A stretch of DNA of 64,000 nt from Akkermansia sp. (lineage in GTDB: Bacteria > Verrucomicrobiota > Verrucomicrobiia > Verrucomicrobiales > Akkermansiaceae): NCBI GenBank assembly GCA_017555025.1, contig JAFZHC010000040.1:1711-65710 (forward strand), written 5' to 3'. Made by a program: the position numbers and the translations under genes. The notes under the pieces are model-generated. The model was given only the letters and a program-made list of their open reading frames with translations, did no database searches and was not told the origin of the DNA. Positions 38,861 to 57,099 of the stretch are shown in pieces (position 1 is the first letter of the stretch; every line of letters begins with the position of its first letter).

Positions 38861-38932
38861 GGCCCCGTAGTTCAATGGATAGAACGGCCCTCTCCTAAAG
38901 GGCAGATGTGGGTTCGATTCCCGCCGGGGCTG
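38861..38932 (+). tRNA. tRNA-Arg (anticodon CCT), CCA not encoded
   Basis: Cloverleaf: GGCCCCG acceptor, GTTC/GAAC D arm, GCCCT-CTCCTAA-AGGGC anticodon arm, GTGGG-TTCGATT-CCCGC T arm. Confidence 0.96.
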
Positions 38933-39888
38933 CTTCAAAAACGCTCAGTTTCGTCAAAGAAATTGACAAAAACGTGTCTGGAGTGTACGCTCACATCGAC
39001 AAGATTCTGGATTACTTCATGAGCCATGAATCTTTCAATCGAGAAGATGCTCAGTCTTTCGTACGTCAGCAAAAGCCTTACACGCTAAAGAATGACTACT
39101 CAAAAACATGGCGTCTGGCTGATATGTTGGATGCGCCTGAGCTATACGAAGCCTATCCTCGGTTAAAAGATATCTTGGTTTCCGAAGAAGACATGGGCGA
39201 CCCGCAAAATGCTGGCTCAACAGAACGCAACGATATAACAATCAATGAAAATTCTCCAGCGAGACTCCAGTTTGAGACTCTTCTTCACGAGACTCAGCAC
39301 ATCATTCAGGATATTGAAGAGTTTGCCGCAGGCTCTGACCCTGATACTGTTTATACGCAGTTCCAAAAAGCGTATGAAAGAATTGCCAAAATTGCCAAAG
39401 GGGGAGTTAATACAAGATTGGCGTCTCGCAAGATGGCAGATGGTATACTTAAGACATTTGTATCGCTTGCAAAAGACATCGCGCCTAATAAAACAAGAAC
39501 TGAAATCCTCATAAACCGTTTAACTGATGGCCTTTGGCCTAAAGTATTAAACGAAGTCGGTTTATATTTGAGAGCTGCTGGAGAAGTAGAAGCCCGAAAC
39601 GTAACCAGCCGCTTAGATTGGACATTAGAACAGAGGAAAAACATCCCCTTTAACGACACCCTTAAGTACAATGGTGAAGCCTGGGTTGACTTCTCTTTAA
39701 TAGCAGACCATCTGGAAAGCTGGCAGCGCGACCCTGTGGCTGAGCTTGGCGAACTGGGGCGATTTGGCAACAATATACAAGGTAAACTGGCTCCAATTGG
39801 AGAAAACGTATACGATGAGCGCGTTACCGCAATGATAAACGCCTTGAGCTGCCTTTTGTTTCCATTACCAAGAGCCGTAGGTCCATGA
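38933..39888 (+). pseudogene. Truncated fragment of a phage/ICE large polyvalent protein (LPD23-like zincin domain)
   Basis: L.D.LD.PELY.AYP.L, TLLHETQHIIQDIE.FA.GS, YLRAAGEVEARNV..R....EQRK..P; AT-richer than the flanks; frame open back into the tRNA; first ATG at 39019. Confidence 0.72.
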
Positions 39889-39967: not shown

Positions 39968-40000
39968 AAAAAAAGGAAGCACCGTAATGGTGCTTCCTTT
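39968..40000 (-). terminator. Intrinsic terminator of the RND operon
   Basis: AAAGGAAGCACC / GGTGCTTCCTTT stem with a T-run on the minus strand. Confidence 0.85.
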
Positions 40001-40024: not shown

Positions 40025-43000
40025 TTATGATTCCTCACCTTCGGCCAGTTTGGCGTAGGCGATTTCCTCGTCGGGGTCAGCACCATGGTGAGCCTTCTCA
40101 ATCTTGGAGCGGAAGAGCTTCATGATGAAGACGAAGGAGCAGGGGATGAAGAACACACCCACAAGGGTGGCAACGGTCATACCGATAACCACCACTACGC
40201 CGATGGCGTTTCGTGCCAGAGCGCCGGAGCCTTCAGCTGTCAGCAGCGGTACACAACCCAGAATGAAGGCGAAAGATGTCATCAGAATGGGGCGCAGACG
40301 CATGCGGGCTGCGGTAACAGCGGCGTCGAGCAGGCTCTGGCCTCGCTCCATCTGCAGCACGGCGAACTCCACAATGAGAATGGCATTCTTGGCGGCAAGA
40401 CCCACCAACATCACCAGACCAATCTGGGCATAGAGGTCGAGCGTCATGCCATACAGCCAGAGGCCGAGGAATGCACCCAGCACGGCAATGGGCACGGAGA
40501 GGAAGATGGCGAGCGGCAGCGTCCATTTCTCGTACAATGCGGCCATAATGAGGAATGCGAACACGCCGGAGAGGGTGAAGATGGCACCCAGACCGAGGCC
40601 GTCCTGCACTTTTTTCTCCTGGAAGCTCATATCAACGTAGGAGAAACCGAACTTTGTTTTGTCCATCACCTTATTGAACTCCTCTTCGATGGCGGCCATG
40701 GCCTGAGCGGAGGAGTAGCCCTCGGCGGGCTGCACGCTGATTTTACCGGAGTTGTAGTTGTTGGTATGCTGAACATACTCGGTATCGGCAATGTCTTTAA
40801 TGGTGACGAGGGTACTCAGCGGTACCGATTCGCCCTTGCTGTTGGCAACGTAGAAGTTGGCAATCTGATCCGTATTGGTACGGCTTACACCGGCAGCCTG
40901 CAGGTACACCTGCCACTGCTGACCGAACTGGGTGTAATAGTTCACGAATCGTGAACCGTTGAAGCACTGCAGCAGGGTGTTTGCGCCGGAGTAATCCACG
41001 CCCTGAGCCAGACATTTATCCTTGTCGATGGCAATGCTCTTCTGCGGTACGGCAGGCAGCATCATGTCCGAAGCCTTGGCAATGGCGGGGTTGGCGTTCA
41101 GTGCAGCCTCGAGGCGCTGCATTTGGCGGTACAGCTCAGCTACACCCTGACCTTCGCGGTCTTCCAGCACGAAGGTGATGTCGTTACCGGTACCTACGCC
41201 GGGGATGGCAGGGGGCATGGCAACAAAGACCATACCGTCGGCTCCGCTCATGGCAAGCTTGGCATTGAGACGTTTGTAAATGTCCTCTGCCGTGGGGCGC
41301 TTGCCGTTCTCCATCACCGGGCGCTCGGCGAAGTCGTGCAACTTCACGAAGTAGGTCATGGCGTTGGTGGTCTGCACGTTAATCATCATGTTCATACCGA
41401 TGATGGATACAACGTGGTCAACGGCAGAGTCCTCCAGAAGTGTTTTCTCAACCGGAACGGTTTCTTCCGTCAGGCGCTGCATGGAGCAGCCGGGTTTCAT
41501 GATAACACCGGCAATGAGGAAGCCTTGGTCCTCGGAGGGAAGGAAGCCACCGGGCACACGGGAAGCCGTGGGGATGATGAGTGCGGCCAGACCGGCAAGT
41601 AAGGGCATGGAAATCCAGAGGCGGCGGCAGAGGAAACCGCAAATAGCGGCAAACTTACCGGCCAACCAGTCATAGCCCTTATTGAAGCCGTTGTAGAAGG
41701 GGGTGAGCAGAGACTTGTGCTCATGCTTGTTCTTGAGCATGATTGCCGAGAGGGCGGGGGAAAGCGTCAGGGCGTTGAAGGCCGAGATGAGCATGGAGAC
41801 GGCAATCGTTACGGCGAACTGCTGGAAAAGCGTACCCGTAATGCCGGGTAACAGCACCGAGGGGAGGAACACAGCCGCCAGCACGAGAGCAATGGCTACT
41901 ACCGGACCGCTCACTTCCTTCATGGCGGCAAAGGTGGCCTGACGGGGAGTCAATCCGTTCTCCATGTGCGATTCTACAGCTTCAACCACCACGATGGCGT
42001 CGTCCACCACCAGACCGATGGCCAGCACCATGCCGAGCAGACAGATGGTGTTGAGCGAGAAGCCCAGAATGGGGAAGAAGCAGAAGGTCGTCACCAGAGA
42101 TACCGGCACAGCGATGAGGGGAATGAGCGTGGCACGCCAGCCCTGCAGGAACAGGAATACCACAAGACCTACCAGCACGAGAGCTTCGAAGAGCGTGTGG
42201 ATGATCTCGTTGATGGAGTCACTTACTGTTGTGGTGGTGTCCAGAGCAATGAACCCGCGCATACCTTCGGGCATGACCTTTTCCTTTTCGGCAAAGAGCT
42301 CACGCAGCGAGGCAACCGTTTCCAGTGCATTGGCATCTGACGCCTGATAGATGGCAAGACAGGTGGCGGGCTGGGCGTCTACTCGGCCGGCGAGCGAGTA
42401 GCTCTGGGAGCCCAGCTCAATCTTGGCGATATCTTTCAGGCGAACGGCCTGAGTGCGGTTCTGGTAAATGATGATGTCACCGAACTCTTCGATGCTTTCC
42501 ACGCGCCCCTTGTTACGGATGGTGAAGGTGAACTCCTGGCCATCGGGCATGGGTTCGGCACCTACGGAGCCGCCGGGGTTGGTGTTGTTCTGCTGGTAAA
42601 CTGCATTGTACACCTGATCGACGGTCAGTCCCTTTTGAGCCATGCGCTCACTATCCAGCCAGATGCGGACGGCATAGCGGCCGCCGAACACCATCACATC
42701 ACCCACGCCTTTTACGCGTTTGGTGGGGTCGACCAAGTTAATGTAGGCGTAGCCGGTCAGGTCGATGGGGTTGAAAAAGCCTTCGGGAGAATCGATAGCA
42801 TAAATCATCAGCGGCAGACCGGACGACTGCTTGATGGTAACACCCATCTGCGATACGGTGCTGGGCAGCTGTGAGGTTGCCTGGCTGTAGCGCATGTAGG
42901 TGAGCTGTTGGTTGGTATTGGCATCTGACCCGGGTTCAAAGATAACATTGAGCGAGCACGAACCGTTGTTGGAGGAGGTGGAGCTCATGTAATCCATCTT

Positions 43001-43219
43001 CTGAATACCCGAGAGCTGAAGCTCAATGGGGGTAGCCACGGCATCCGCCACTTCCTGAGCATTGGCACCGGGGTAGGTGGCGCTCAGCTGAATGGTGATG
43101 GGGGTGATGTCCGGGTACTGAGAGATGGGCAGAGCCAGCATGCAGATGATACCCAGCATCGTGGTCACGATGGAGATAACGCCTGCGATGATGGGGTGTT
43201 TAATGAAATAAGGAGACAT
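40025..43219 (-). CDS. RND efflux permease (HAE1, AcrB/MexB-like)
   Basis: [47 protein letters not shown]; proton-relay D-D-K-T residues intact. Confidence 0.96.
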
Positions 43220-43240: not shown

Positions 43241-46210
43241 TTATTTGAACTGAGGAGCGATGGAGGTGTCAGTATCTGCCGTGACGGAGTCTACCACCGT
43301 CTTCGGGGTTACATAGTGGAACGGTGAGGGGGTGAGCTTATTGGCTCGGGTTCCCTTTTCCATGTTGGTGGCCAGCGTTTGACTGGCGGCCATCAGCGAG
43401 CCTTCCACGATAACGGGCACGTTTGACATGTCGGTGAAGTTCATGCTCTTCAGAATCATCTCCAGAGCTGAGGCAAAGCCGGCATCGCGGGCGACCAGCT
43501 CCAATTCGTCTTTAGCATTGCTGCGATTGAACTCCAGTTCCTTAGCGCTCTTCACACCGGCCTGTCGCAGAGCAAGTTCCTTCCAGTCGGCTGCACCGGC
43601 TTGCTGCGGATGGTCGTCCGGCAGGGCTTGCCCGAGTTCTTTCTCCAGTAGGGCTCGGTAGTCGGCTACGCCTGCTTTCTTCAGTACCAGGTCATCCCAG
43701 GTCTTAACCCCGGCTTTGCCCAGAATCATGGCATCGAGGCTGGTTACTCCGGCTTTTGCCAGCATAGGAGGAATGACGGAGTCGCGGTCAACGTCAATCA
43801 TGTACATAGGTTGCACAACTTCCTTACCGCCTTCTTCCTTGACCGGTACGACTACCAGCGAGCCCTTGGTGATAGGCAGGGGGGTGGGGGCGTTGTCCTC
43901 TGCAAGTAAGAGGATGATGTCCTTGCCGTTGGCATTCATCGGTGCTCGGGCAGGTACCAGATAGGCACCCTTCACGGGATTCATGGCGGCTCTTACGCGT
44001 ACCGGCATGCCGCTGCGCAGCCCTTGGTCCACATTTTCCACACGACCGACAATACCGAAAGTACCCTTGGTGGTGCTCAGAGTGTTGTCCATGGAGATAA
44101 TTTCACCCTTGGCCGGATAGACGGAACCGTCTTTCAGGATGAGGTCAAACTTCGGCTTGTTGTCCGGGCCGATTTTGTGCTGTTGCAGCGCTTCAATGCT
44201 GGCAAGAGCCCCCTTACCGCTCACGCTGAAATCCACACGGATGGGATTGACGGAGGAGAGGGTGACCAGCGGCTCGACATCGGTGGGGCTGACCAGCGCA
44301 CCGATGGAGGGTTTGCTGATGCCGGCGCGGCCATCGAAGGGCGCGGTGATGGTGGTGTAGCCGAGGTTGATTTCAGCCAGCTGTACAGCAGCCTGCATCT
44401 GCTCAACAGTAGCTTCAGACTTGAGCACGGCAGCCTCGTTGGTCTGAACATCGGTGCGGGTATCGGTGACAGTCTTTTCAGAGACGGCACCGGGGCTGTT
44501 TGTTACCAGACGGGTGTAGCGCTCCAAGTCGGCGCGGCTCATGCTGAGTTTGGCTTTTGCTTCATCCAAAGCGGCTTCGGCGGAGAGCAGGTTGGCCTTT
44601 GCCTCATCCAGAGCTGCCTGATAGGGCGCCGGATCGATGGTGTAGAGCACATCTCCCTTTTTCACGATGGTGCCGTTGCGGAAGTTCTGTGTGAGGATGA
44701 AGCCGCTCACGCGGGGGCGGATGTCGGTTTCTTCCTCACCACGCAGGGTGCCAAACCATTCATCCTGTACTGCAACGTCTTGCTGTACCAGCGGCATTAC
44801 CTGTACGGGGAAAGGCGGTTTTGTGGCTTTAACTTCGGCCTTAGGCTTAGCCGGCTCGCCATTCGTGACTTTTGCCATGATGGCCTTCTCGGCGGCGGTC
44901 ATGGCGGGGCGGAAGCTGAAGGGAACGGTCTTGATGGTGCCGCGCGGGGTGGGGTCATCCTTCGCCAGTCGGCTGTTGGCAGACGAGATGTTCATGGCTC
45001 GTACTCCGTTGTCCGGGTCTGCGACAACCGGCACATCCTCGGCTTTTTCATAGCCATAATCGCGGAAGTAATCAGCGAGAGGGCGGGCGTAGTCCTTAAC
45101 GGCCACCAGCTGTTGCACAGAGCTGTAGCCATCCTCTTCATTAATGTTGATATCGTATTTGCCGTCTACCACAACCGGTATGGTATGGGGCTGGTTGTTT
45201 TTATCAACAATGATGATGAAATTATTGCGCAGAACGGTGCGGATGGCTGAGGGCGGTACCAGCAGCGCCTCCTTGGTGCCGAGCGGAATCTTCACGCGCA
45301 CCGGCATGCCGCCTCGCAGCAGATTGTTCGGGTTGTCAATTTCTCCTTCAACGTCAATCAGCCCGGTTTCGGCCACTTTGCTTTCCATGGAGAGCAGGCG
45401 GCCTTTGCTGGGGTACACGCTGCCGTCTTCCAGAATGAGGTCAAAGGAAGGCGAGGTGAGGGTTTCGTCTTTTTTGTCGGATTGCACCTTGCCGAAGCGA
45501 CGGAAAGAGTTGACCAAACCATCGCTGTTGATGGCGAAATCCACACGGATGGGATTAAGGGATGTCAGGTTAGTCAGCTTAGTGGTGGAGCCCACCAAAT
45601 CGCCTTTCGAGACAAATGCCGAGCCGGCGATGCCATCATAGGGGGCTCGCACGACGGTATAGTCAAGGTTAATGCGAGCCTTGTTGACGGCGGCCTTGTT
45701 TTGTTCGATACTTGCCAGACATGCCTTCACTCCGGCTTCTGCCGCTTGCAGTTTGTGGCGGGCATCGCTTACTTGTTTCTCGGAGGCGGCTGCGGTCTTC
45801 ACCAAGTGCTCATAGCGCTCGACATCCAGTTTGAGCTGGTCACGGGTGGCAATGGCCGACGTCAGCGCTGCTTCGGCTGCTTTCATGTTAGCCTCAGCCT
45901 GAGCTAATTCCGCTTCGTAAAGGTCGGGGTCGAGCTTAAAGAGCACATCGCCCTTTTTCACAGGTTTGCCATCCTGGTATTCCTGCGAAATAATAAAGCC
46001 GCTGACTTTGGGGTGAATATCTGTGTTATTCTTGCCGCGAAGGTAACCGAACCACTCACCATAGTCTGTTACTTCCTGCTTGATAATTCGGAAAGCTTTG
46101 ATGGCGGCTTCCTCTGTTTGTACCTGCTGAGCATCCTTATTGTCGCATCCGGTCATCAGCCCAAGTGTGCAACTGCTCAGGGCCAGCGCTATGAGTGTTT
46201 GTCTGGTCAT
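43241..46210 (-). CDS. RND periplasmic adaptor lipoprotein comprising two complete tandem MFP modules (989 aa)
   Basis: Lipobox LMTGC; module 1 EWFGYLRG..DIHPKVSG..VKKGDVLF, RAPYDG; module 2 EWFGTLRG..DIRPRVSG..VKKGDVLY, TAPFDG. Confidence 0.9.
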   Translation of the reverse strand: MTRQTLIALALSSCTLGLMTGCDNKDAQQVQTEEAAIKAFRIIKQEVTDYGEWFGYLRGKNNTDIHPKVSGFIISQEYQDGKPVKKGDVLFKLDPDLYEAELAQAEANMKAAEAALTSAIATRDQLKLDVERYEHLVKTAAASEKQVSDARHKLQAAEAGVKACLASIEQNKAAVNKARINLDYTVVRAPYDGIAGSAFVSKGDLVGSTTKLTNLTSLNPIRVDFAINSDGLVNSFRRFGKVQSDKKDETLTSPSFDLILEDGSVYPSKGRLLSMESKVAETGLIDVEGEIDNPNNLLRGGMPVRVKIPLGTKEALLVPPSAIRTVLRNNFIIIVDKNNQPHTIPVVVDGKYDININEEDGYSSVQQLVAVKDYARPLADYFRDYGYEKAEDVPVVADPDNGVRAMNISSANSRLAKDDPTPRGTIKTVPFSFRPAMTAAEKAIMAKVTNGEPAKPKAEVKATKPPFPVQVMPLVQQDVAVQDEWFGTLRGEEETDIRPRVSGFILTQNFRNGTIVKKGDVLYTIDPAPYQAALDEAKANLLSAEAALDEAKAKLSMSRADLERYTRLVTNSPGAVSEKTVTDTRTDVQTNEAAVLKSEATVEQMQAAVQLAEINLGYTTITAPFDGRAGISKPSIGALVSPTDVEPLVTLSSVNPIRVDFSVSGKGALASIEALQQHKIGPDNKPKFDLILKDGSVYPAKGEIISMDNTLSTTKGTFGIVGRVENVDQGLRSGMPVRVRAAMNPVKGAYLVPARAPMNANGKDIILLLAEDNAPTPLPITKGSLVVVPVKEEGGKEVVQPMYMIDVDRDSVIPPMLAKAGVTSLDAMILGKAGVKTWDDLVLKKAGVADYRALLEKELGQALPDDHPQQAGAADWKELALRQAGVKSAKELEFNRSNAKDELELVARDAGFASALEMILKSMNFTDMSNVPVIVEGSLMAASQTLATNMEKGTRANKLTPSPFHYVTPKTVVDSVTADTDTSIAPQFK

Positions 46211-46232
46211 ATATGTGAAGATGGTATAGTCT

Positions 46233-46769
46233 TTATTCGCAACCTTGCATAATGAGAATGAAGAGAATGAAAATAATAGTGGCAATAGTGCCTGCACCAA
46301 TCGTTCCCTCCTTTTTTTCTGCTCCGGTATCGCGAATAATGGTGGGCATTTTGTACTCCCGAGCGGAGGTGGTGTTGACTTGCCTCGTCTCGTTGTATCG
46401 GAAGAATTCCTGGTTGGTGGCGACTTTGGGCACTTCCGGCAGCTTGCGGGTAGGAGGCGGCGGGGCGGTCTTAACCCGTTCTTCTGAACGATATTGAGGC
46501 GCGATGCGAGCCTTGATTCCTGTCTGCTGCGGGGCGGCAACCGGAATTTCCGATATAACGGGTTCTGCTACCTCCGGTACGCTGAGGGTGGGTAAAGAGG
46601 AGAGGGAATGCTGCTGTGCAGCAAACTCTCGAGCCCTCTGTTCCTGCTCGGCAACCATGGCATTGAGCTTGCGTACCAGGTCGTTCGACATCGCTTCGAG
46701 CGCCAATCGCTGGGGCTCTGTGGTGACTTCGTCACCGTGAGGAACATCAATAGGGCTGTTTGTATTCAT
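46233..46769 (-). CDS. Hypothetical tail-anchored protein
   Basis: Coiled coil, Pro-rich linker, C-terminal TM (IATIIFILFILIMQGCE). Confidence 0.6.
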   Translation of the reverse strand: MNTNSPIDVPHGDEVTTEPQRLALEAMSNDLVRKLNAMVAEQEQRAREFAAQQHSLSSLPTLSVPEVAEPVISEIPVAAPQQTGIKARIAPQYRSEERVKTAPPPPTRKLPEVPKVATNQEFFRYNETRQVNTTSAREYKMPTIIRDTGAEKKEGTIGAGTIATIIFILFILIMQGCE

Positions 46770-46777
46770 AACACTTG

Positions 46778-47407
46778 TTAATCAAGTTTGAGTTCACTCT
46801 GAACGGGTATCCCGCCGGTCGGTGTGCTGCGCCAAATCTGTGGGGACGTCTGCTGGGGGCGGGGCGCTTCCTCCTCGGTGTGGCCGTTCTGCATGGCTGA
46901 GAGCACAGCCTTAACCATCTTTTGTTTGTCACCGGCGGCTCTCCAAGCGAGATACAGGAAATCTGCGGGGTGAATGTTGCCGTGCTCTCGCAGGAAGATG
47001 CGATCCTGCTCGTCGTAGTACATCAGTCCGGCATCGAGCACACCGTACAGCTTAGCTTCTGCCTTACGGATAATACGTGGCAGGTAGGGAATGCCCTGAA
47101 AGTCGTCATCGGCTGAGGGCAGGTCGATGGCTCGTACCGGTTTAGCGTTGCCGGAAATACCGCGCTGAGCCGTTATGAAAAAAGTGCGGCGGGCAGCTGC
47201 TATCAGCAGAATGGTGCTGGGGGAAGGGTCTCCCAGAGTTGCATAATCCTGAATGTAGGGGTGCATTTCCTGAGGAGTGTAGCCGATTTCGGTGAGCAGT
47301 TTGACCTCATCGGGCAAAAAGAAGCCGCTTGCCGGTGTCTGCGGCCGCTCGTGGTAACGCGTGACAGAATCACGTATCAGGCTCATGAATGCATCATTCC
47401 ATTCCAT
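46778..47407 (-). CDS. DUF5069-like protein
   Basis: YLPRIIRKAEAKL.G.L....MY...D..FL...I...DFL; start set at MEWND because the first ATG overlaps the TATAAT box. Confidence 0.6.
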   Translation of the reverse strand: MEWNDAFMSLIRDSVTRYHERPQTPASGFFLPDEVKLLTEIGYTPQEMHPYIQDYATLGDPSPSTILLIAAARRTFFITAQRGISGNAKPVRAIDLPSADDDFQGIPYLPRIIRKAEAKLYGVLDAGLMYYDEQDRIFLREHGNIHPADFLYLAWRAAGDKQKMVKAVLSAMQNGHTEEEAPRPQQTSPQIWRSTPTGGIPVQSELKLD

Positions 47408-47541
47408 ACGCTCCATTATAGGTGAAGTTCATGTGCTGTTGCAAGTACAAAACATGTCTTCGTCGTGTTAAGTTTTTCCATGTCTGAAAATGACATGTTG
47501 TGTGCTTGCCAAATGAAGCAAGTCGGAGACAATAGGGGGCT

Positions 47542-48354: not shown

Positions 48355-49446
48355 CTAATTCTCCATTTGCCCGAATTTTCGTTTATGTTCTTCCAGGTAA
48401 GCGTCTTCTATCTCTCTTGCTCTTTTGCCGCCATGGCGTTTGAGCAGTTCCGCCATAGCGGGGAACGGTGCGTGAGGCTCTTCTGCCATATCGAGCGGGG
48501 TTTGGGCAAAAGGTGGGTACGGAGACAGGGCAATGGCGTTGACATTTGCGCGAGCCTCCAGCAGAAGTTCAGCTATTTCGAGTGCTGCTTCAGTACTGCT
48601 GCACCAGTCTTGTGCTACGTAATGCAGCGCAGTTTCCCGACTTTCCGGTGAAACGGTCTGACAGACATTTTCGCCGTGACTGAGTATTTTGCGCACGCAC
48701 TCGACATCGCCGTCTCTGATGGGCTCTGCGAGTAGTGGTTCCATGACCAGAGCCGGACTGTTGAATTTTCCGCCGTATGATTCCAGCAGCGGCAGGAGGT
48801 GGCGATGACATTTGGTTATGGCGAGGCTCATGGGTGTGGCACCCATGATGCGCCCCTGATAAGCGCGGTTAGTGTCAGCTCCTTTGCTCAGCAGGTATTT
48901 CACTTGTCGGCTGATATCTTTTGCCGGTGGTGATTTGTCATCGCTCCGGTTGTCTGCCAAAAGCAGGTAGAGTGTATCTTCCCGGTCGGGATTTGCCTGT
49001 AGCACATGGTGGCAGATATCGGCGGTCAGGTAGTACTCGCAATTTACTGCATCGGAAAAGTCTTCGTCCGCATCTGAAAATGAATAGAAGATGAATATAA
49101 CGACGCAAAGAAGAGCATAGCCGGGGAAATTGATTTCCCGGTGCTCACTTTTCTCCGGCGTCGGTACAGCCGCGGAACTTTTCTGCACCGCGGAGGGTAA
49201 GCGGAAGCTGTTTTTCTGCTCCCAGCTGCGCTCAGGGGGTGTGGGTTGATCTAATTTCCATACTTTCCAGAGCAGATATTCGAGCGCCAGCGCCCCCACA
49301 AGCAGAAGTCCCCATGCCGTCAGAATAAAGGCCTCGCTTACTCTTCCGGGCGCAGGGAACCATTGCGGCACATTTCGGCTCAGGGTCGTATGCAGCCAGC
49401 TGTTGAACAAGGTAAAGAGTAGCAGAATAAGAATGCGCTTAAACAT
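48355..49446 (-). CDS. Membrane-anchored ankyrin-repeat protein
   Basis: 3 N-terminal TM segments; GATPMSLA, ETALHYVA, LLLEARANVNA, QTPLDMA..LLKRHGGK. Confidence 0.8.
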   Translation of the reverse strand: MFKRILILLLFTLFNSWLHTTLSRNVPQWFPAPGRVSEAFILTAWGLLLVGALALEYLLWKVWKLDQPTPPERSWEQKNSFRLPSAVQKSSAAVPTPEKSEHREINFPGYALLCVVIFIFYSFSDADEDFSDAVNCEYYLTADICHHVLQANPDREDTLYLLLADNRSDDKSPPAKDISRQVKYLLSKGADTNRAYQGRIMGATPMSLAITKCHRHLLPLLESYGGKFNSPALVMEPLLAEPIRDGDVECVRKILSHGENVCQTVSPESRETALHYVAQDWCSSTEAALEIAELLLEARANVNAIALSPYPPFAQTPLDMAEEPHAPFPAMAELLKRHGGKRAREIEDAYLEEHKRKFGQMEN

Positions 49447-49448
49447 AG

Positions 49449-50135
49449 TCAGGGAAGGTCGTTGCCGCACAAAACGCTGATGAGTAAGATTGCCGGAAGA
49501 GCTGCACTCATGGCAACAGAGGCCGGTAAATCAATGCAGACTGCACTCAGGCAGGCCGCCGGGCGAGCCCAGTAGTGCCCGCTGGGATTTAACGGCTCGG
49601 CCGATTCGAACGGAGAGTAGTAATCATCTCTTTTTCTTTTGGCTTCCCATTCGGGGGATACAATAAGGTAACTATCTTTCCGTTGGATGGAGGGCTTGGC
49701 AACGATTGGGATAATGGTGCCGTTGCTGTGCTCGGGGAGTGGTTGGCGAGTTTTCAGGCGTTCTTCGATATCTTTTTCCAGTTTGACGAGGTCATAGTAA
49801 GCCCCTTGAGAACTCAGTCTGCTTGCCATGTGGGTAGATAGCGGCAGCCAGGCATAGGTGCCGGTTCTGCTCTGTATTTTATCGCCGTAACATACTGCGA
49901 CAAAGGGGCCGTAATTGATTGAGCCATCTATTTTGCGCCTTTGCTGCATGGCTTGTACATTTTCTGCCTTGATATAATAACGCCCATCTTTATGGAGCAA
50001 CTCGGCGGAATGTTCGGTTGACCAAGCCGGGAAACATCGCGCATATTCAGCGATACTGCTATGGGTGTTGAGTGTGAGGCAGGACGTGAGCAGACAACAT
50101 AAAAGGAGTGGTATGAGGTAAGTTGGGGATTTCAT
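49449..50135 (-). CDS. Hypothetical lipoprotein with a C-terminal hydrophobic D-x-P segment (paralog family, copy 1)
   Basis: LLTSC lipobox; HKDGRYY; C-terminal PAACLSAVCIDLPASVAMS. Confidence 0.7.
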   Translation of the reverse strand: MKSPTYLIPLLLCCLLTSCLTLNTHSSIAEYARCFPAWSTEHSAELLHKDGRYYIKAENVQAMQQRRKIDGSINYGPFVAVCYGDKIQSRTGTYAWLPLSTHMASRLSSQGAYYDLVKLEKDIEERLKTRQPLPEHSNGTIIPIVAKPSIQRKDSYLIVSPEWEAKRKRDDYYSPFESAEPLNPSGHYWARPAACLSAVCIDLPASVAMSAALPAILLISVLCGNDLP

Positions 50136-53859: not shown

Positions 53860-56800
53860 ATGGAAACAAGAACTGTTTTACCTGTTCGCTCTGCCATGGC
53901 TGCTTTGGCTCTGGCCTGTGGCGCGGTTGTCGCTGCACAAAATAGCGATTTTGATGCGCTGAAAGCTCATTGGAGCTTTGATGAAGGGCGTGATTGGCAC
54001 AATATGCCGACGCCTTTTAAGTGCGATGCAACATTCGTTGATGAACTGACCGGCAAGTCTGATTGCTTGGTTATCAATGGTAAGTGTGAGGCTGATAACG
54101 CAGCTTGGGTGTCCGGTCGTCAGCATGCCGGTATGGCTCCCGGGCGTCTCCTCAGCACCATGAAAGAGTTGCATTGGCTGAACGGCTCGGTTACATTCTC
54201 GTACTGGACCCGCCTGAATGGTGCTCCGAATAAGCGCGGCGTGGTTGGCTCTAACTACACGACTCTGTGGGGCGTGATGAATGACAAGGGGCAGGTGGGC
54301 ATGCGCATGAAGGGGCGCAATATTGTTGTGTCCCCTGTTGCCATTACCGATAATGACTGGCACCATGTGGTATTCACCCGCGATGCCGCTACCGGTAAAG
54401 TTGTGCTCTATCTCGATGGCAAGGAAGTAGCTACCGGTACCACCACCAAGGGCAAACTGCCGGGCGTTTTCGAGGCATTTGCTACCAACAACGCAGCTCT
54501 GGATCAGATTCACATCTTTGACAAGCCTGTTTCTGCCGAGACCGTGGCAACTCTGTACGACAACCACGCTCCGCAGGTGTTTGACCAGGTTTATTTGGTC
54601 GAGACCTCTAAGCCTACTGTGACAGGCAGTATCCTGCACCGTTTCACCTACGATGTGGATCAGGACAAGATGAGCGTGGCCTACTACACTCAGCCCGAGG
54701 GTGGTAAGGTAACCAGCAATGGCGATGGTTCGTTTACCTTCACTCCGAATGCCGCCTTTGCCCGTACGGGTGAGACTTCCTTTGATGTTGTGGTGACGGA
54801 TGGTCGTGGTGGCTACACCAAGGCAAAGATGACCCTGCAGGACAGCCGCTATCAGGTGGCTCCCGCTGTGCGCGAGTTCCGCTACTTCGGTGCTCTGCCT
54901 GAGTTCACCACCGGCGCCGGCAAGAAGCAGAACCACCGCAACCCGATGGCTATTTATCTCAACGGTAAGAAGGCGGATTTGCTCATTCAGGCCGATTCAC
55001 GCTTGTGGTACAGCATCAATGAATCCAAGCGCGGCAAGATTCTGTTCTCCGAGCCTCAGGTTCTGCGTACAACTGCTCAGGCTGAGTTCGAGACTGATGG
55101 TGCCGCCGTGCTCGAGGACAATAAACTCATCGTCCGCAAGCCTGATGGCACAATGGTGATGGCCTATGTGATGGGGCAGGATGTTCCCGCTCTGGAAATC
55201 GGTGCTACTGTGAAGGACACCACCGGTGCAACCATGAAGCTGCCCACCCGCCACTTCTCTCTGCTCGACTACGACCACGATGGTACTCCCGATTTGATTA
55301 CCGGCTATAGTGGTGGTCTGTACTATCACAAGGGGCAGGCTTCCTTCTACACCATCGAAGGTGGTGTGAAGAAGGTGCGCAACATCAGCTTTGCTCCCGA
55401 GCAGCAGGTCATTTACCTGCGCTCTTACAACATCGCTCCCGGTGTGGGTGACCTGAACGCTGATGGTCGCCCCGACTTGCTGCACGGCATTAACTGGGGT
55501 ACCCTGCATGCATGGGTGAACCAGGCAACCAAGCCCACCATCAGCGATGGCGAGTACATGCAGTTGGCGCTTACCAATATGCCTCACGAGCATTTCGTGC
55601 GTAACCTCAACGGTGCTCATCTGGCTGTGGCTGACTTTGATGGCGATGGTACTGCTGACATGGTGCTGGGCGGTAATGCCGGTCGCGAACTGGCAAGCGC
55701 TCTGGGTGTGAACCCCGACAGCTGGGCCGGTAACCTCACCATTATCGAGAATGAGCTTTACAAGGGTCATGAGAAGGATCTCGGCAGAGTGCTCGAAGCA
55801 GATGGCCAGAAGGGCCTGAAGCGCTACCGCGAGCTAATGACAGGCTGGATTCGCTGGGCGGTGTCTCAGAATACCCCCGCCAAGCGTCAGGCTGCATGGA
55901 ATATGCTGGCTACTCACGTGAAGAAGTACCCCTTCCTGCAGCGCTGCGTGCTGGAGGAGGCTTGGGTGAAACGCGAGAAGAACGAGCTGGTAAGCTATGG
56001 CGATATGCACCACGTGCCGGGTATCTTCACCATGAACTGGATTGTGCTGCACCGCTTGCTGCCGGATTCTGCCAAGCACCGCAAGGCCGTGGCCAATGCT
56101 CTGGGTATGACCGGGCTTGACCGCGAGGCTTATCTGGCTAAGGGTATGCCGCTGGCCGACAATAAGCGTTGCTCCGAAGGTCAGCTGCGCGCTACTTGGG
56201 ATCTGCTCAATTACCACGCTCCCATTCTGTTCCCGGATGATCACATCTCCATCAGCCAGCATTTCGATGATGGCCGTGAGGCTATGTGCTATATCTTCGA
56301 GTCCAATAAAAACACCTTCAGCGTGGAGGTGGGTAACAATGTCGCTGAAATGCACGGCGATATGGTCAAGCTGACGGAAGAGTGTTTCGGTCAGAAGGGT
56401 GCTGCAAGTGGCGATTATTATACCTTCGTGCTGGCTCACGAGGTATGTCACTCGCTGGATGGCTATGTGAACCGACGCGCCAATACCGACCTGAAGCGCC
56501 GTTGGGGTGATCAGAACTTCTATGCCTCCACCAATGCCGGCCAGAATAACGTCGTTGTTGCCGATGAAACCGGCTGGTGGAATATGAACCTGACCAAGGA
56601 GCGCTTTAAGGAGCTCGGTCTGTGGGATGGTAAGAATGAGACTTGGAACGACACTTGGAAGGCCTACTGGAAGAACTGTCCTTATCGCAGCAAGGTATTC
56701 ATGCGCGGTGATATCGATTGGTTCCTTGCTGCTCAGCAGGAGTCCCTTGCTACGCAGGCTAACCACCACTGGGCTCGCTCCGAATCCCGACTTATCGGCG

Positions 56801-57099
56801 CCATCCTGCGCTATCTGCAGGGGTACAAATCCAATATCAATGAGGTGGTGTTCTATCTGGACGTTCTTTCTGCCGGGCAGAATAAGTTGCCGATGCTTCA
56901 CCCCTGGGGCTCCGGCAAACCGACGCTCGTAAACTTCAATGTGGAGTACGCCTGGCTCACGCGTAACGACAAGGGCTATATCACCGATGTCCGCATAGGT
57001 GACCGCCACTACGGCTTTGAGGTGGATGACAACGGCCGTGTCGTCGGTCTGCGCACTTACCCCTTCGCTGATAAGATTCAGGCCGCAGCCAAGAAGTAA
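53860..57099 (+). CDS. Secreted multidomain protein: LamG/ConA-like, Ig-like, FG-GAP repeats and a C-terminal HExxH domain
   Basis: Signal peptide; HWSFDEG, NDWHHVV, LYLDGK (LamG); NHAP..DVDQD..DGSFTFTP..VTDG (Ig); DYDHDG.PDL, DLNADG.PDL, DFDGDG.AD; LAHEVCHSLD. Confidence 0.8.
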   Translation: METRTVLPVRSAMAALALACGAVVAAQNSDFDALKAHWSFDEGRDWHNMPTPFKCDATFVDELTGKSDCLVINGKCEADNAAWVSGRQHAGMAPGRLLSTMKELHWLNGSVTFSYWTRLNGAPNKRGVVGSNYTTLWGVMNDKGQVGMRMKGRNIVVSPVAITDNDWHHVVFTRDAATGKVVLYLDGKEVATGTTTKGKLPGVFEAFATNNAALDQIHIFDKPVSAETVATLYDNHAPQVFDQVYLVETSKPTVTGSILHRFTYDVDQDKMSVAYYTQPEGGKVTSNGDGSFTFTPNAAFARTGETSFDVVVTDGRGGYTKAKMTLQDSRYQVAPAVREFRYFGALPEFTTGAGKKQNHRNPMAIYLNGKKADLLIQADSRLWYSINESKRGKILFSEPQVLRTTAQAEFETDGAAVLEDNKLIVRKPDGTMVMAYVMGQDVPALEIGATVKDTTGATMKLPTRHFSLLDYDHDGTPDLITGYSGGLYYHKGQASFYTIEGGVKKVRNISFAPEQQVIYLRSYNIAPGVGDLNADGRPDLLHGINWGTLHAWVNQATKPTISDGEYMQLALTNMPHEHFVRNLNGAHLAVADFDGDGTADMVLGGNAGRELASALGVNPDSWAGNLTIIENELYKGHEKDLGRVLEADGQKGLKRYRELMTGWIRWAVSQNTPAKRQAAWNMLATHVKKYPFLQRCVLEEAWVKREKNELVSYGDMHHVPGIFTMNWIVLHRLLPDSAKHRKAVANALGMTGLDREAYLAKGMPLADNKRCSEGQLRATWDLLNYHAPILFPDDHISISQHFDDGREAMCYIFESNKNTFSVEVGNNVAEMHGDMVKLTEECFGQKGAASGDYYTFVLAHEVCHSLDGYVNRRANTDLKRRWGDQNFYASTNAGQNNVVVADETGWWNMNLTKERFKELGLWDGKNETWNDTWKAYWKNCPYRSKVFMRGDIDWFLAAQQESLATQANHHWARSESRLIGAILRYLQGYKSNINEVVFYLDVLSAGQNKLPMLHPWGSGKPTLVNFNVEYAWLTRNDKGYITDVRIGDRHYGFEVDDNGRVVGLRTYPFADKIQAAAKK

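Follow-up and report, generated by a model that had tools for sequence, protein, structure and literature searches.

Tripartite resistance-nodulation-division (RND) efflux pumps are assembled as 3 RND : 6 adaptors : 3 outer-membrane factors (OMFs), and the adaptors (membrane fusion proteins, MFPs, or periplasmic adaptor proteins, PAPs) occupy two non-equivalent positions (PMC8277102, PMC13328181, PMC4446572, PMC4338810). The division of labour among the six adaptors is still debated, and it has been probed mostly with TriAB and with artificial fusions. The TriABC pump needs two different adaptors, which are 36% identical (PMC4338810, PMC13328181), and an engineered TriA-TriB fusion is functional (PMC4446572, PMC4338810, PMC13328181). 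Tandem AcrA-AcrA fusions have also been engineered and, by the account of Xu et al. (2011) given in PMC4446572 and PMC13328181, function with the RND trimer. In this report, we examine a 64,000-nucleotide stretch of DNA from an uncultured gut Akkermansia sp. (GenBank assembly GCA_017555025.1, contig JAFZHC010000040.1, positions 1,711 to 65,710 of the forward strand; hereafter “the window”). It carries the gene for a natural protein of related design, a 989-residue lipoprotein with two RND-adaptor modules, which we call the double adaptor.

A natural fusion of two adaptors has a precedent. DSY0927 of Desulfitobacterium hafniense is a fused dimeric PAP that has been cited since 2009 in support of a trimer-of-dimers arrangement, with the dimer taken as the functional unit (Zgurskaya et al. 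2009, by way of PMC4446572 and PMC4338810). According to the passage on it in PMC4338810, the partner of DSY0927 is an ABC-type transporter, its host is Gram-positive, and its N-terminal half is of the MFS type and lacks a coiled coil. An adaptor review from 2026 mentions no cases other than TriAB and the engineered tandem fusions. An earlier note on this DNA, made from the sequence alone, had presented the two-module architecture as novel. That claim is weakened because DSY0927 has so long been known as a fused dimeric PAP; it stands insofar as our full-text literature searches returned no paper on a natural RND-type tandem adaptor with two full hairpins or on the Akkermansia family. The double adaptor is a real, conserved and previously unremarked form of a known principle, not a new kind of system. 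We read it as the single-chain adaptor pair of a tripartite RND pump, with three chains per RND trimer and position-specific modules, and we assign this reading a probability of about 0.62.

Two adaptor modules in one lipoprotein

The gene of the double adaptor occupies 43241..46210 on the minus strand, from an ATG at 46210 to a stop codon at 43241-43243, as judged from the translation, the match to the NCBIfam family TIGR01730 and the homologues. The earlier note had given the same positions, which stand, but no strand; the plus strand of this interval contains no open reading frame (ORF), with stops throughout its translation. A longer, TTG-started ORF (43241-46540, 1099 aa) was discarded, as the homologues begin at the ATG. 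Its 110-residue extension is rich in Pro, Arg and Ser and overlaps the upstream ORF, the stop of which is separated from the ATG by 22 nt. At the N-terminus, MTRQTLIALALSSCTLGLMTGC|DNKD constitutes a lipoprotein signal; the signal peptide and lipobox span residues 1-22 (LMTG-C22; 46145..46210, minus strand), an assignment made from the sequence, the conservation of Cys22 and the N-termini of 120 listed homologues. Cys22 is invariant in the 67 homologues that were aligned. This single lipobox supplies the inner-membrane anchor and serves module 1, while module 2 has no anchor of its own and is tethered via a linker.

The earlier claim that one ORF of this length combines a single lipobox with two full adaptor modules is borne out by translation, profile matching, self-alignment and structure prediction. 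TIGR01730 (RND_mfp) matches two separate stretches of the protein at 336.9 bits (cut-off 94.9), and an alignment of the N- and C-terminal halves covers 343 residues with 41% identity (E 3e-78); these are the domain scan and self-comparison that had been proposed as checks. The sequence motifs from which the duplication had first been recognised (EWFGxLRG...DIxPxVSG, VKKGDVL, APxDG, NPIRVDF and GMPVRV) are each found in both halves. An AlphaFold2 (AF2) model, calculated from a 67-sequence alignment, has a mean predicted local distance difference test score (pLDDT) of 80.4 and a predicted template-modelling score (pTM) of 0.62. In each module, it shows the same order of elements: an N-terminal strand, a lipoyl domain, a two-helix hairpin, a beta-barrel and membrane-proximal (MP) strands. 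The earlier claim depended on neither module lacking the hairpin or the barrel, and both are present in each module of the model. Among structures in the PDB, Foldseek ranks AcrA, MexA and a MexC-like adaptor highest (E-values down to 1e-26). Further, the precomputed Pfam assignments of the family comprise BSH_RND, HH_MFP_RND and Beta-barrel_RND.

Module 1 covers residues 37-435 (44906..46102, minus strand) and consists of an MP strand, the lipoyl domain, the hairpin, the barrel and an MP domain with a short helix insert, as delimited by the AF2 model, the self-alignment and conserved columns. At its C-terminal end, a conserved NISSANSRL helix is followed by a PFSFRP strand. The inter-module linker (residues 436-464; 44819..44905, minus strand) has low pLDDT values and is rich in Ala, Lys, Pro and Glu; residues 437-460 are disordered in the model. 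Across the family, the linker is 22-34 residues long (median 29) and variable in sequence, and all 67 aligned homologues lack Cys there. Module 2 (residues 465-965; 43316..44818, minus strand) repeats the domain order of module 1. Its start had been placed near 44815, which corresponds to residue 466 and agrees with the AF2 model, in which the first strand of module 2 is at E467. Both modules terminate in an extra helix and a PFxF/Y strand, a feature that they have in common with the closest single-module Akkermansia adaptors.

The architecture is not peculiar to this genome. We scanned one genome per species for 185,579 species; the scan was pattern-seeded, and the best 80 loci were kept. The survey that the earlier note had called for finds the single-chain double adaptor conserved, as one two-module ORF, in 46 species-level genomes among these loci, all of them Akkermansia or Akkermansiaceae and including A. 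muciniphila metagenome-assembled genomes (MAGs) and Ca. A. intestinavium. The next-best matches, from other taxa, are single modules. Because the scan was pattern-seeded and limited to the best 80 loci, absence of the double adaptor outside Akkermansiaceae is unproven. In a word-indexed protein search, more than 120 clusters (971-1023 aa) matched with identities of 52-99%; where these are full-length, the match spans the entire query. One family member from ENA/Logan metagenomes, P0126, is 1430 aa long and has ~450 extra residues within module 2. By eye, this insert resembles additional lipoyl/coiled-coil-like segments; there are five matched stretches, the usual C-terminal helical domain is kept and the length of 1430 aa recurs in five cluster members.

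The hairpins, as defined by the AF2 model and conservation, are of equal length in the two modules. That of module 1 spans residues 96-183 (45662..45925, minus strand; helices 96-138 and 144-183) and carries at its tip the RLS motif for OMF docking, formed by R132, L136 and S143. That of module 2 spans residues 528-617 (44360..44629, minus strand; helices 528-571 and 578-617), with the RLS motif at R564, L568 and S577. Across the 46 species, the Arg is 100% and the Leu 98% conserved, and module 1 retains the Ser at 96%, module 2 at 78%. Compared with the solved adaptor that matches best, which by HMMER is a MexC-like protein for module 1 and AcrA for module 2, each hairpin helix is extended by about one heptad.

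Two features set module 2 apart. The first, evident from the alignment, is that its hairpin tip is longer by two residues (572-573, here Ser-Pro; 44489..44497, minus strand), an insertion absent from every module 1 and every single-module relative. In module 2 of the 46 species, P573 is 96% and the neighbouring G574 98% conserved. The second is a set of nine short helices inserted in the MP domain (residues 809-922; 43445..43786, minus strand), which are predicted in the AF2 model and consist of repeats of the type AGVxxxxxLxLK. Modelled alone, this region of ~115 residues gives a confident fold (pLDDT 87.2). A Foldseek search found no fold match in the PDB (best E 1.0), and a profile search found no sequence match there; a weak match to DUF4332 (E 0.019) is the sole hint from Pfam. 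Module 1 and the single-module relative P0134 apparently have one unit of the element each. This new insert, at the transporter-facing end of the adaptor, is structurally unexplained.

The permease and the outer-membrane partner

The adaptor gene is followed after 21 nt, in the same orientation, by the gene for an HAE1-type RND permease of 1064 aa (40025..43219, minus strand; ACR_tran 923.7 bits, TIGR00915 979 bits). Of the 46 double-adaptor loci, 45 have a permease homologue as the next gene downstream, and the remaining locus is cut by the contig end. Directly after the RND gene, an intrinsic-terminator-like hairpin with 12 pairs and a T run (39972..40000, minus strand) closes the operon without an OMF gene.

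We found no OMF gene in the window, either by Pfam scans of the neighbouring genes or by tblastn with two Akkermansia-type OMFs (best E 0.064), and at the 46 loci none is present in the downstream DNA covered, which extends to at most ~8 kb. Candidates next to the RND gene were rejected: the ORFs of 186 and 326 aa downstream of it have no family match, and at the A. muciniphila locus the gene in third place encodes an NAD synthase. The 326-residue ORF (38908-39888, plus strand) is convergent with the RND gene, contains a HETQH (HExxH-like) motif and sits where single-adaptor operons carry their OMF gene.

The nearest single-module relatives stand in classical MFP-RND-OMF operons; these are P0130 (from A. 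glycaniphila), P0134 and the adaptors at loci L086 and L088. Such operons occupy 7208-14294 of L080, an A. glycaniphila-type contig, 1380-7848 of L082 and 2814-9392 of L088. A MarR regulator gene is directly upstream at L082 and L088, and an unassigned gene of 163 aa takes that place at L080; the double-adaptor operon has neither an OMF gene nor a recognisable regulator. In the MAG JAFYUJ01, a double-adaptor locus (L017) and the MarR-MFP-RND-OMF operon of L088 are present on separate contigs; at least one double-adaptor genome therefore encodes an OMF as well, as part of another RND operon. These results agree with the earlier note, which had held that the operon lacks an OMF gene and that the channel is encoded elsewhere. 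Such borrowing would resemble that of TriABC, which reportedly employs OpmH, encoded outside the triABC operon.

Module divergence and the likely mode of action

Across the 46 species, mean identity is 60% among modules 1 and 62% among modules 2. Between modules 1 and 2 it is 38%, and it is not higher within one protein than between species. This pattern implies purifying selection on both modules and no gene conversion, and it confirms that the modules are diverged, as had been supposed. In addition, each module forms one clade with 100% bootstrap, and thus the fused architecture arose once. The grouping of the two modules as sisters relative to the nearest single-module Akkermansia adaptors has a bootstrap of only 48.5%, and an earlier neighbour-joining tree placed P0134/P0136 beside module 2; the trees do not decide between intragenic duplication and fusion of two paralogous genes. 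No un-fused, TriAB-like intermediate with two adjacent adaptor genes was found at 33 single-module loci or around P0130 and P0134.

We propose that the usual adaptor protomer pair of a tripartite RND efflux pump is made here as one polypeptide. Module 1 would be held at the inner membrane by its N-terminal lipid, and module 2, with neither signal peptide nor anchor, would be kept beside it by the flexible linker of ~29 residues. Three such chains around one trimer of the co-transcribed permease would provide six modules, and the two non-equivalent positions would be filled by module 1 and module 2 in alternation. The hairpin tips of all six would then dock on an OMF encoded elsewhere, probably that of a second, classical MFP-RND-OMF operon of the genome. 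Three chains per RND trimer, the most economical reading, is plausible by analogy with the stoichiometry of AcrAB-TolC/MexAB-OprM, with TriAB and with the engineered tandem fusions; we infer from these the 3:3 stoichiometry and the position-specific roles, and the OMF used and the substrate are inferred too. The last of these could be bile or host-derived amphiphiles. Ox-bile mildly induces one pair of RND adaptor and permease genes in A. muciniphila (AMUC_RS10890/10895), and phenylalanine-arginine beta-naphthylamide (PAbetaN) reduces bile tolerance (PMC7671984). The adaptor of this pair (WP_051729712.1) may be the A. muciniphila orthologue of the double adaptor, a protein of 985 aa; its accession did not appear among the cluster members listed. 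The double adaptor may belong to a bile-tolerance pump.

The sequences suggest non-equivalent roles for the two modules. The tip insertion and the nine-helix domain of module 2 point to specialisation and, being module-specific, furnish the argument that modules 1 and 2 are no longer interchangeable.

Several points weigh against the proposed arrangement. The positions of the modules in the pump are assigned by analogy, and the OMF partner is a candidate only. The MP domains of both modules, which are the parts that touch the RND protein, are atypical: the TIGR01730 match ends at position 286 of 322 of the profile, helical insertions are present in both, and RND-MFP_C never appears in the precomputed Pfam lists of the family. 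MP strands are predicted at the expected places in the AF2 model. The linker could be cleaved in vivo. Metatranscriptome contigs are few and short (151-227 nt), and they fall on each module with none spanning the junction; they constitute weak evidence that the double adaptor is transcribed. Finally, the sequence evidence for specialisation outside the two insertions of module 2 is modest, because, of the aligned positions that are at least 90% conserved in both modules, 67 are identical and only six have different residues.

This last count also favours the alternative that survives best, in which the fusion serves only 1:1 co-production and the export of a signal-less second copy, the modules being interchangeable and having no fixed positions. 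Engineered AcrA-AcrA homodimer fusions, as cited in PMC4446572, do function, and in five other lineages both modules of a protein are each other’s closest relatives, so that fusion precedes divergence. We nevertheless regard this explanation as unlikely. Interchangeable modules are difficult to reconcile with an identity of 38% between modules against ~60% within each across 46 species, and module 2 has two private features that are conserved.

An explanation to which we give about half as much credence is that the double adaptor is a precursor, the linker of which is cut after export, so that module 1 keeps the lipid and module 2 is released into the periplasm, and the two then behave like the TriA/TriB pair. 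The predicted disorder of the linker and its abundance of Ala, Lys and Pro would suit such processing. Also, module 2 lacks its own export signal, so the fusion could act as an export vehicle. However, there is no conserved cleavage motif in the linkers of the aligned homologues, linker length is kept while the sequence varies, and engineered fusions work uncut.

It is more doubtful still that one module only acts as the pump adaptor while the other, most likely module 2, has acquired another role, for example as a binding partner of some other component of the envelope. The nine-helix domain, which has no known fold match and resides in the domain that normally touches the transporter, might be taken as a sign of this. 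Yet module 2 has lost none of the adaptor domains, retains the RLS motif and matches module 1 in hairpin length, and it is, if anything, the nearer of the two to canonical adaptors (33% identity to single-module adaptors, compared with 30% for module 1). The last alternative, an assembly or annotation artefact in which a frameshift or lost stop merged two neighbouring adaptor genes, is ruled out, as Logan contigs from four runs of three studies (gut metagenomes, two bovine) cover the junction with substitutions only and zero indels, the continuity that the earlier note had wanted checked, and one continuous ORF is present in 46 species, none with a stop or frameshift between the modules, and in more than 120 protein clusters.

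Among these explanations, we therefore favour the single-chain adaptor pair with position-specific modules. A natural, genus-wide fusion with diverged modules fixes the pairing and the order of the two adaptor units. As a natural model for the way in which the two adaptor positions share their work, the double adaptor should be convenient for cryo-EM and genetics, because each module could be identified unambiguously in a map. Further, its host is a gut commensal of medical interest for which genetic tools now exist.

Neighbouring genes, other tandem adaptors and known systems

Two further minus-strand ORFs lie upstream of the adaptor gene. The nearer (178 aa; 46233..46769) has a C-terminal hydrophobic tail and partly conserved synteny; the farther (212 aa; 46778..47416) has homologues upstream of the adaptor at most loci, at 51-80% identity. 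A promoter-like site with 10/12 matches (47444-47415) precedes both. Neither ORF has a Pfam or NCBIfam match, and no homologue of either was detected at the A. muciniphila loci L033 and L034. They may be pump accessories or regulators. More distant genes of the window encode a membrane-anchored ankyrin-repeat protein (48355-49470, minus strand) and a 1079-residue protein with Laminin_G_3, cadherin-like and FG-GAP domains (53860-57099, plus strand), possibly a surface or host-interaction protein of gut Akkermansia.

Two-module proteins account for 12 of the top 150 representative matches to the double adaptor, and seven of the 12 belong to its own Akkermansia family. The other five (P0133, P0140, P0144, P0153 and P0197; 715-823 aa) have two full modules each and no helical insert. 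Within each of these five, the modules are sisters, which identifies them as independent, more recent duplications. To judge from these 150 matches, tandem adaptors appear to have arisen independently in at least five other lineages. The loci of two of the five were examined: P0144 (777 aa; L083 7001-16334) and P0153 (823 aa; L085 7001-16357) are encoded at TetR-MFPx2-RND-RND loci, with the TetR gene immediately upstream; these double adaptors are paired with a presumably heteromeric RND transporter, as in MdtBC/MuxBC. That tandem adaptors recur in lineages unrelated to one another favours the view of the adaptor dimer as the functional unit. A more ambitious proposition can be offered only tentatively, at somewhat short of even odds: that the double adaptor is an obligate single-chain heterodimer hard-wired to the two adaptor positions, that its OMF is borrowed, that tandem adaptors had at least six independent origins and that, beyond DSY0927, such proteins have gone undescribed. 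If this were true, tandem adaptor fusion would be a recurrent evolutionary solution.

How, then, does the double adaptor compare with known systems? Each of its modules has the same fold and motifs as single adaptors of the AcrA/MexA type. The relatives P0130 and P0134, by comparison, are single modules of ~455 aa in MFP-RND-OMF operons. With DSY0927, it shares the presence of two adaptor modules in one natural polypeptide. The two differ in that the Akkermansia partner is an HAE1 RND permease, and both halves are of the RND type with full hairpins and RLS tips. The AcrA-AcrA fusions are artificial and made of identical modules, whereas the Akkermansia modules are natural and diverged.

Close parallels are found in the Tri system. 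Like TriABC-OpmH of Pseudomonas aeruginosa, the Akkermansia system combines two distinct adaptor units (36-41% identity) with a single RND gene, and the operon does not include the OMF. TriA and TriB, however, are separate gene products, whereas the Akkermansia modules form a single ORF; nor are these modules orthologues of TriA and TriB, as they cluster with Akkermansia adaptors. The solved, fused Tri chain (PDB 6VEJ, chain P, 695 aa) matches at an E-value of only 5e-12. The engineered TriA-TriB fusion in that structure and the double adaptor are alike in their head-to-tail arrangement and single lipid anchor. Unlike the engineered protein, the Akkermansia fusion is natural, is fixed genus-wide and carries an extra helical domain in module 2.

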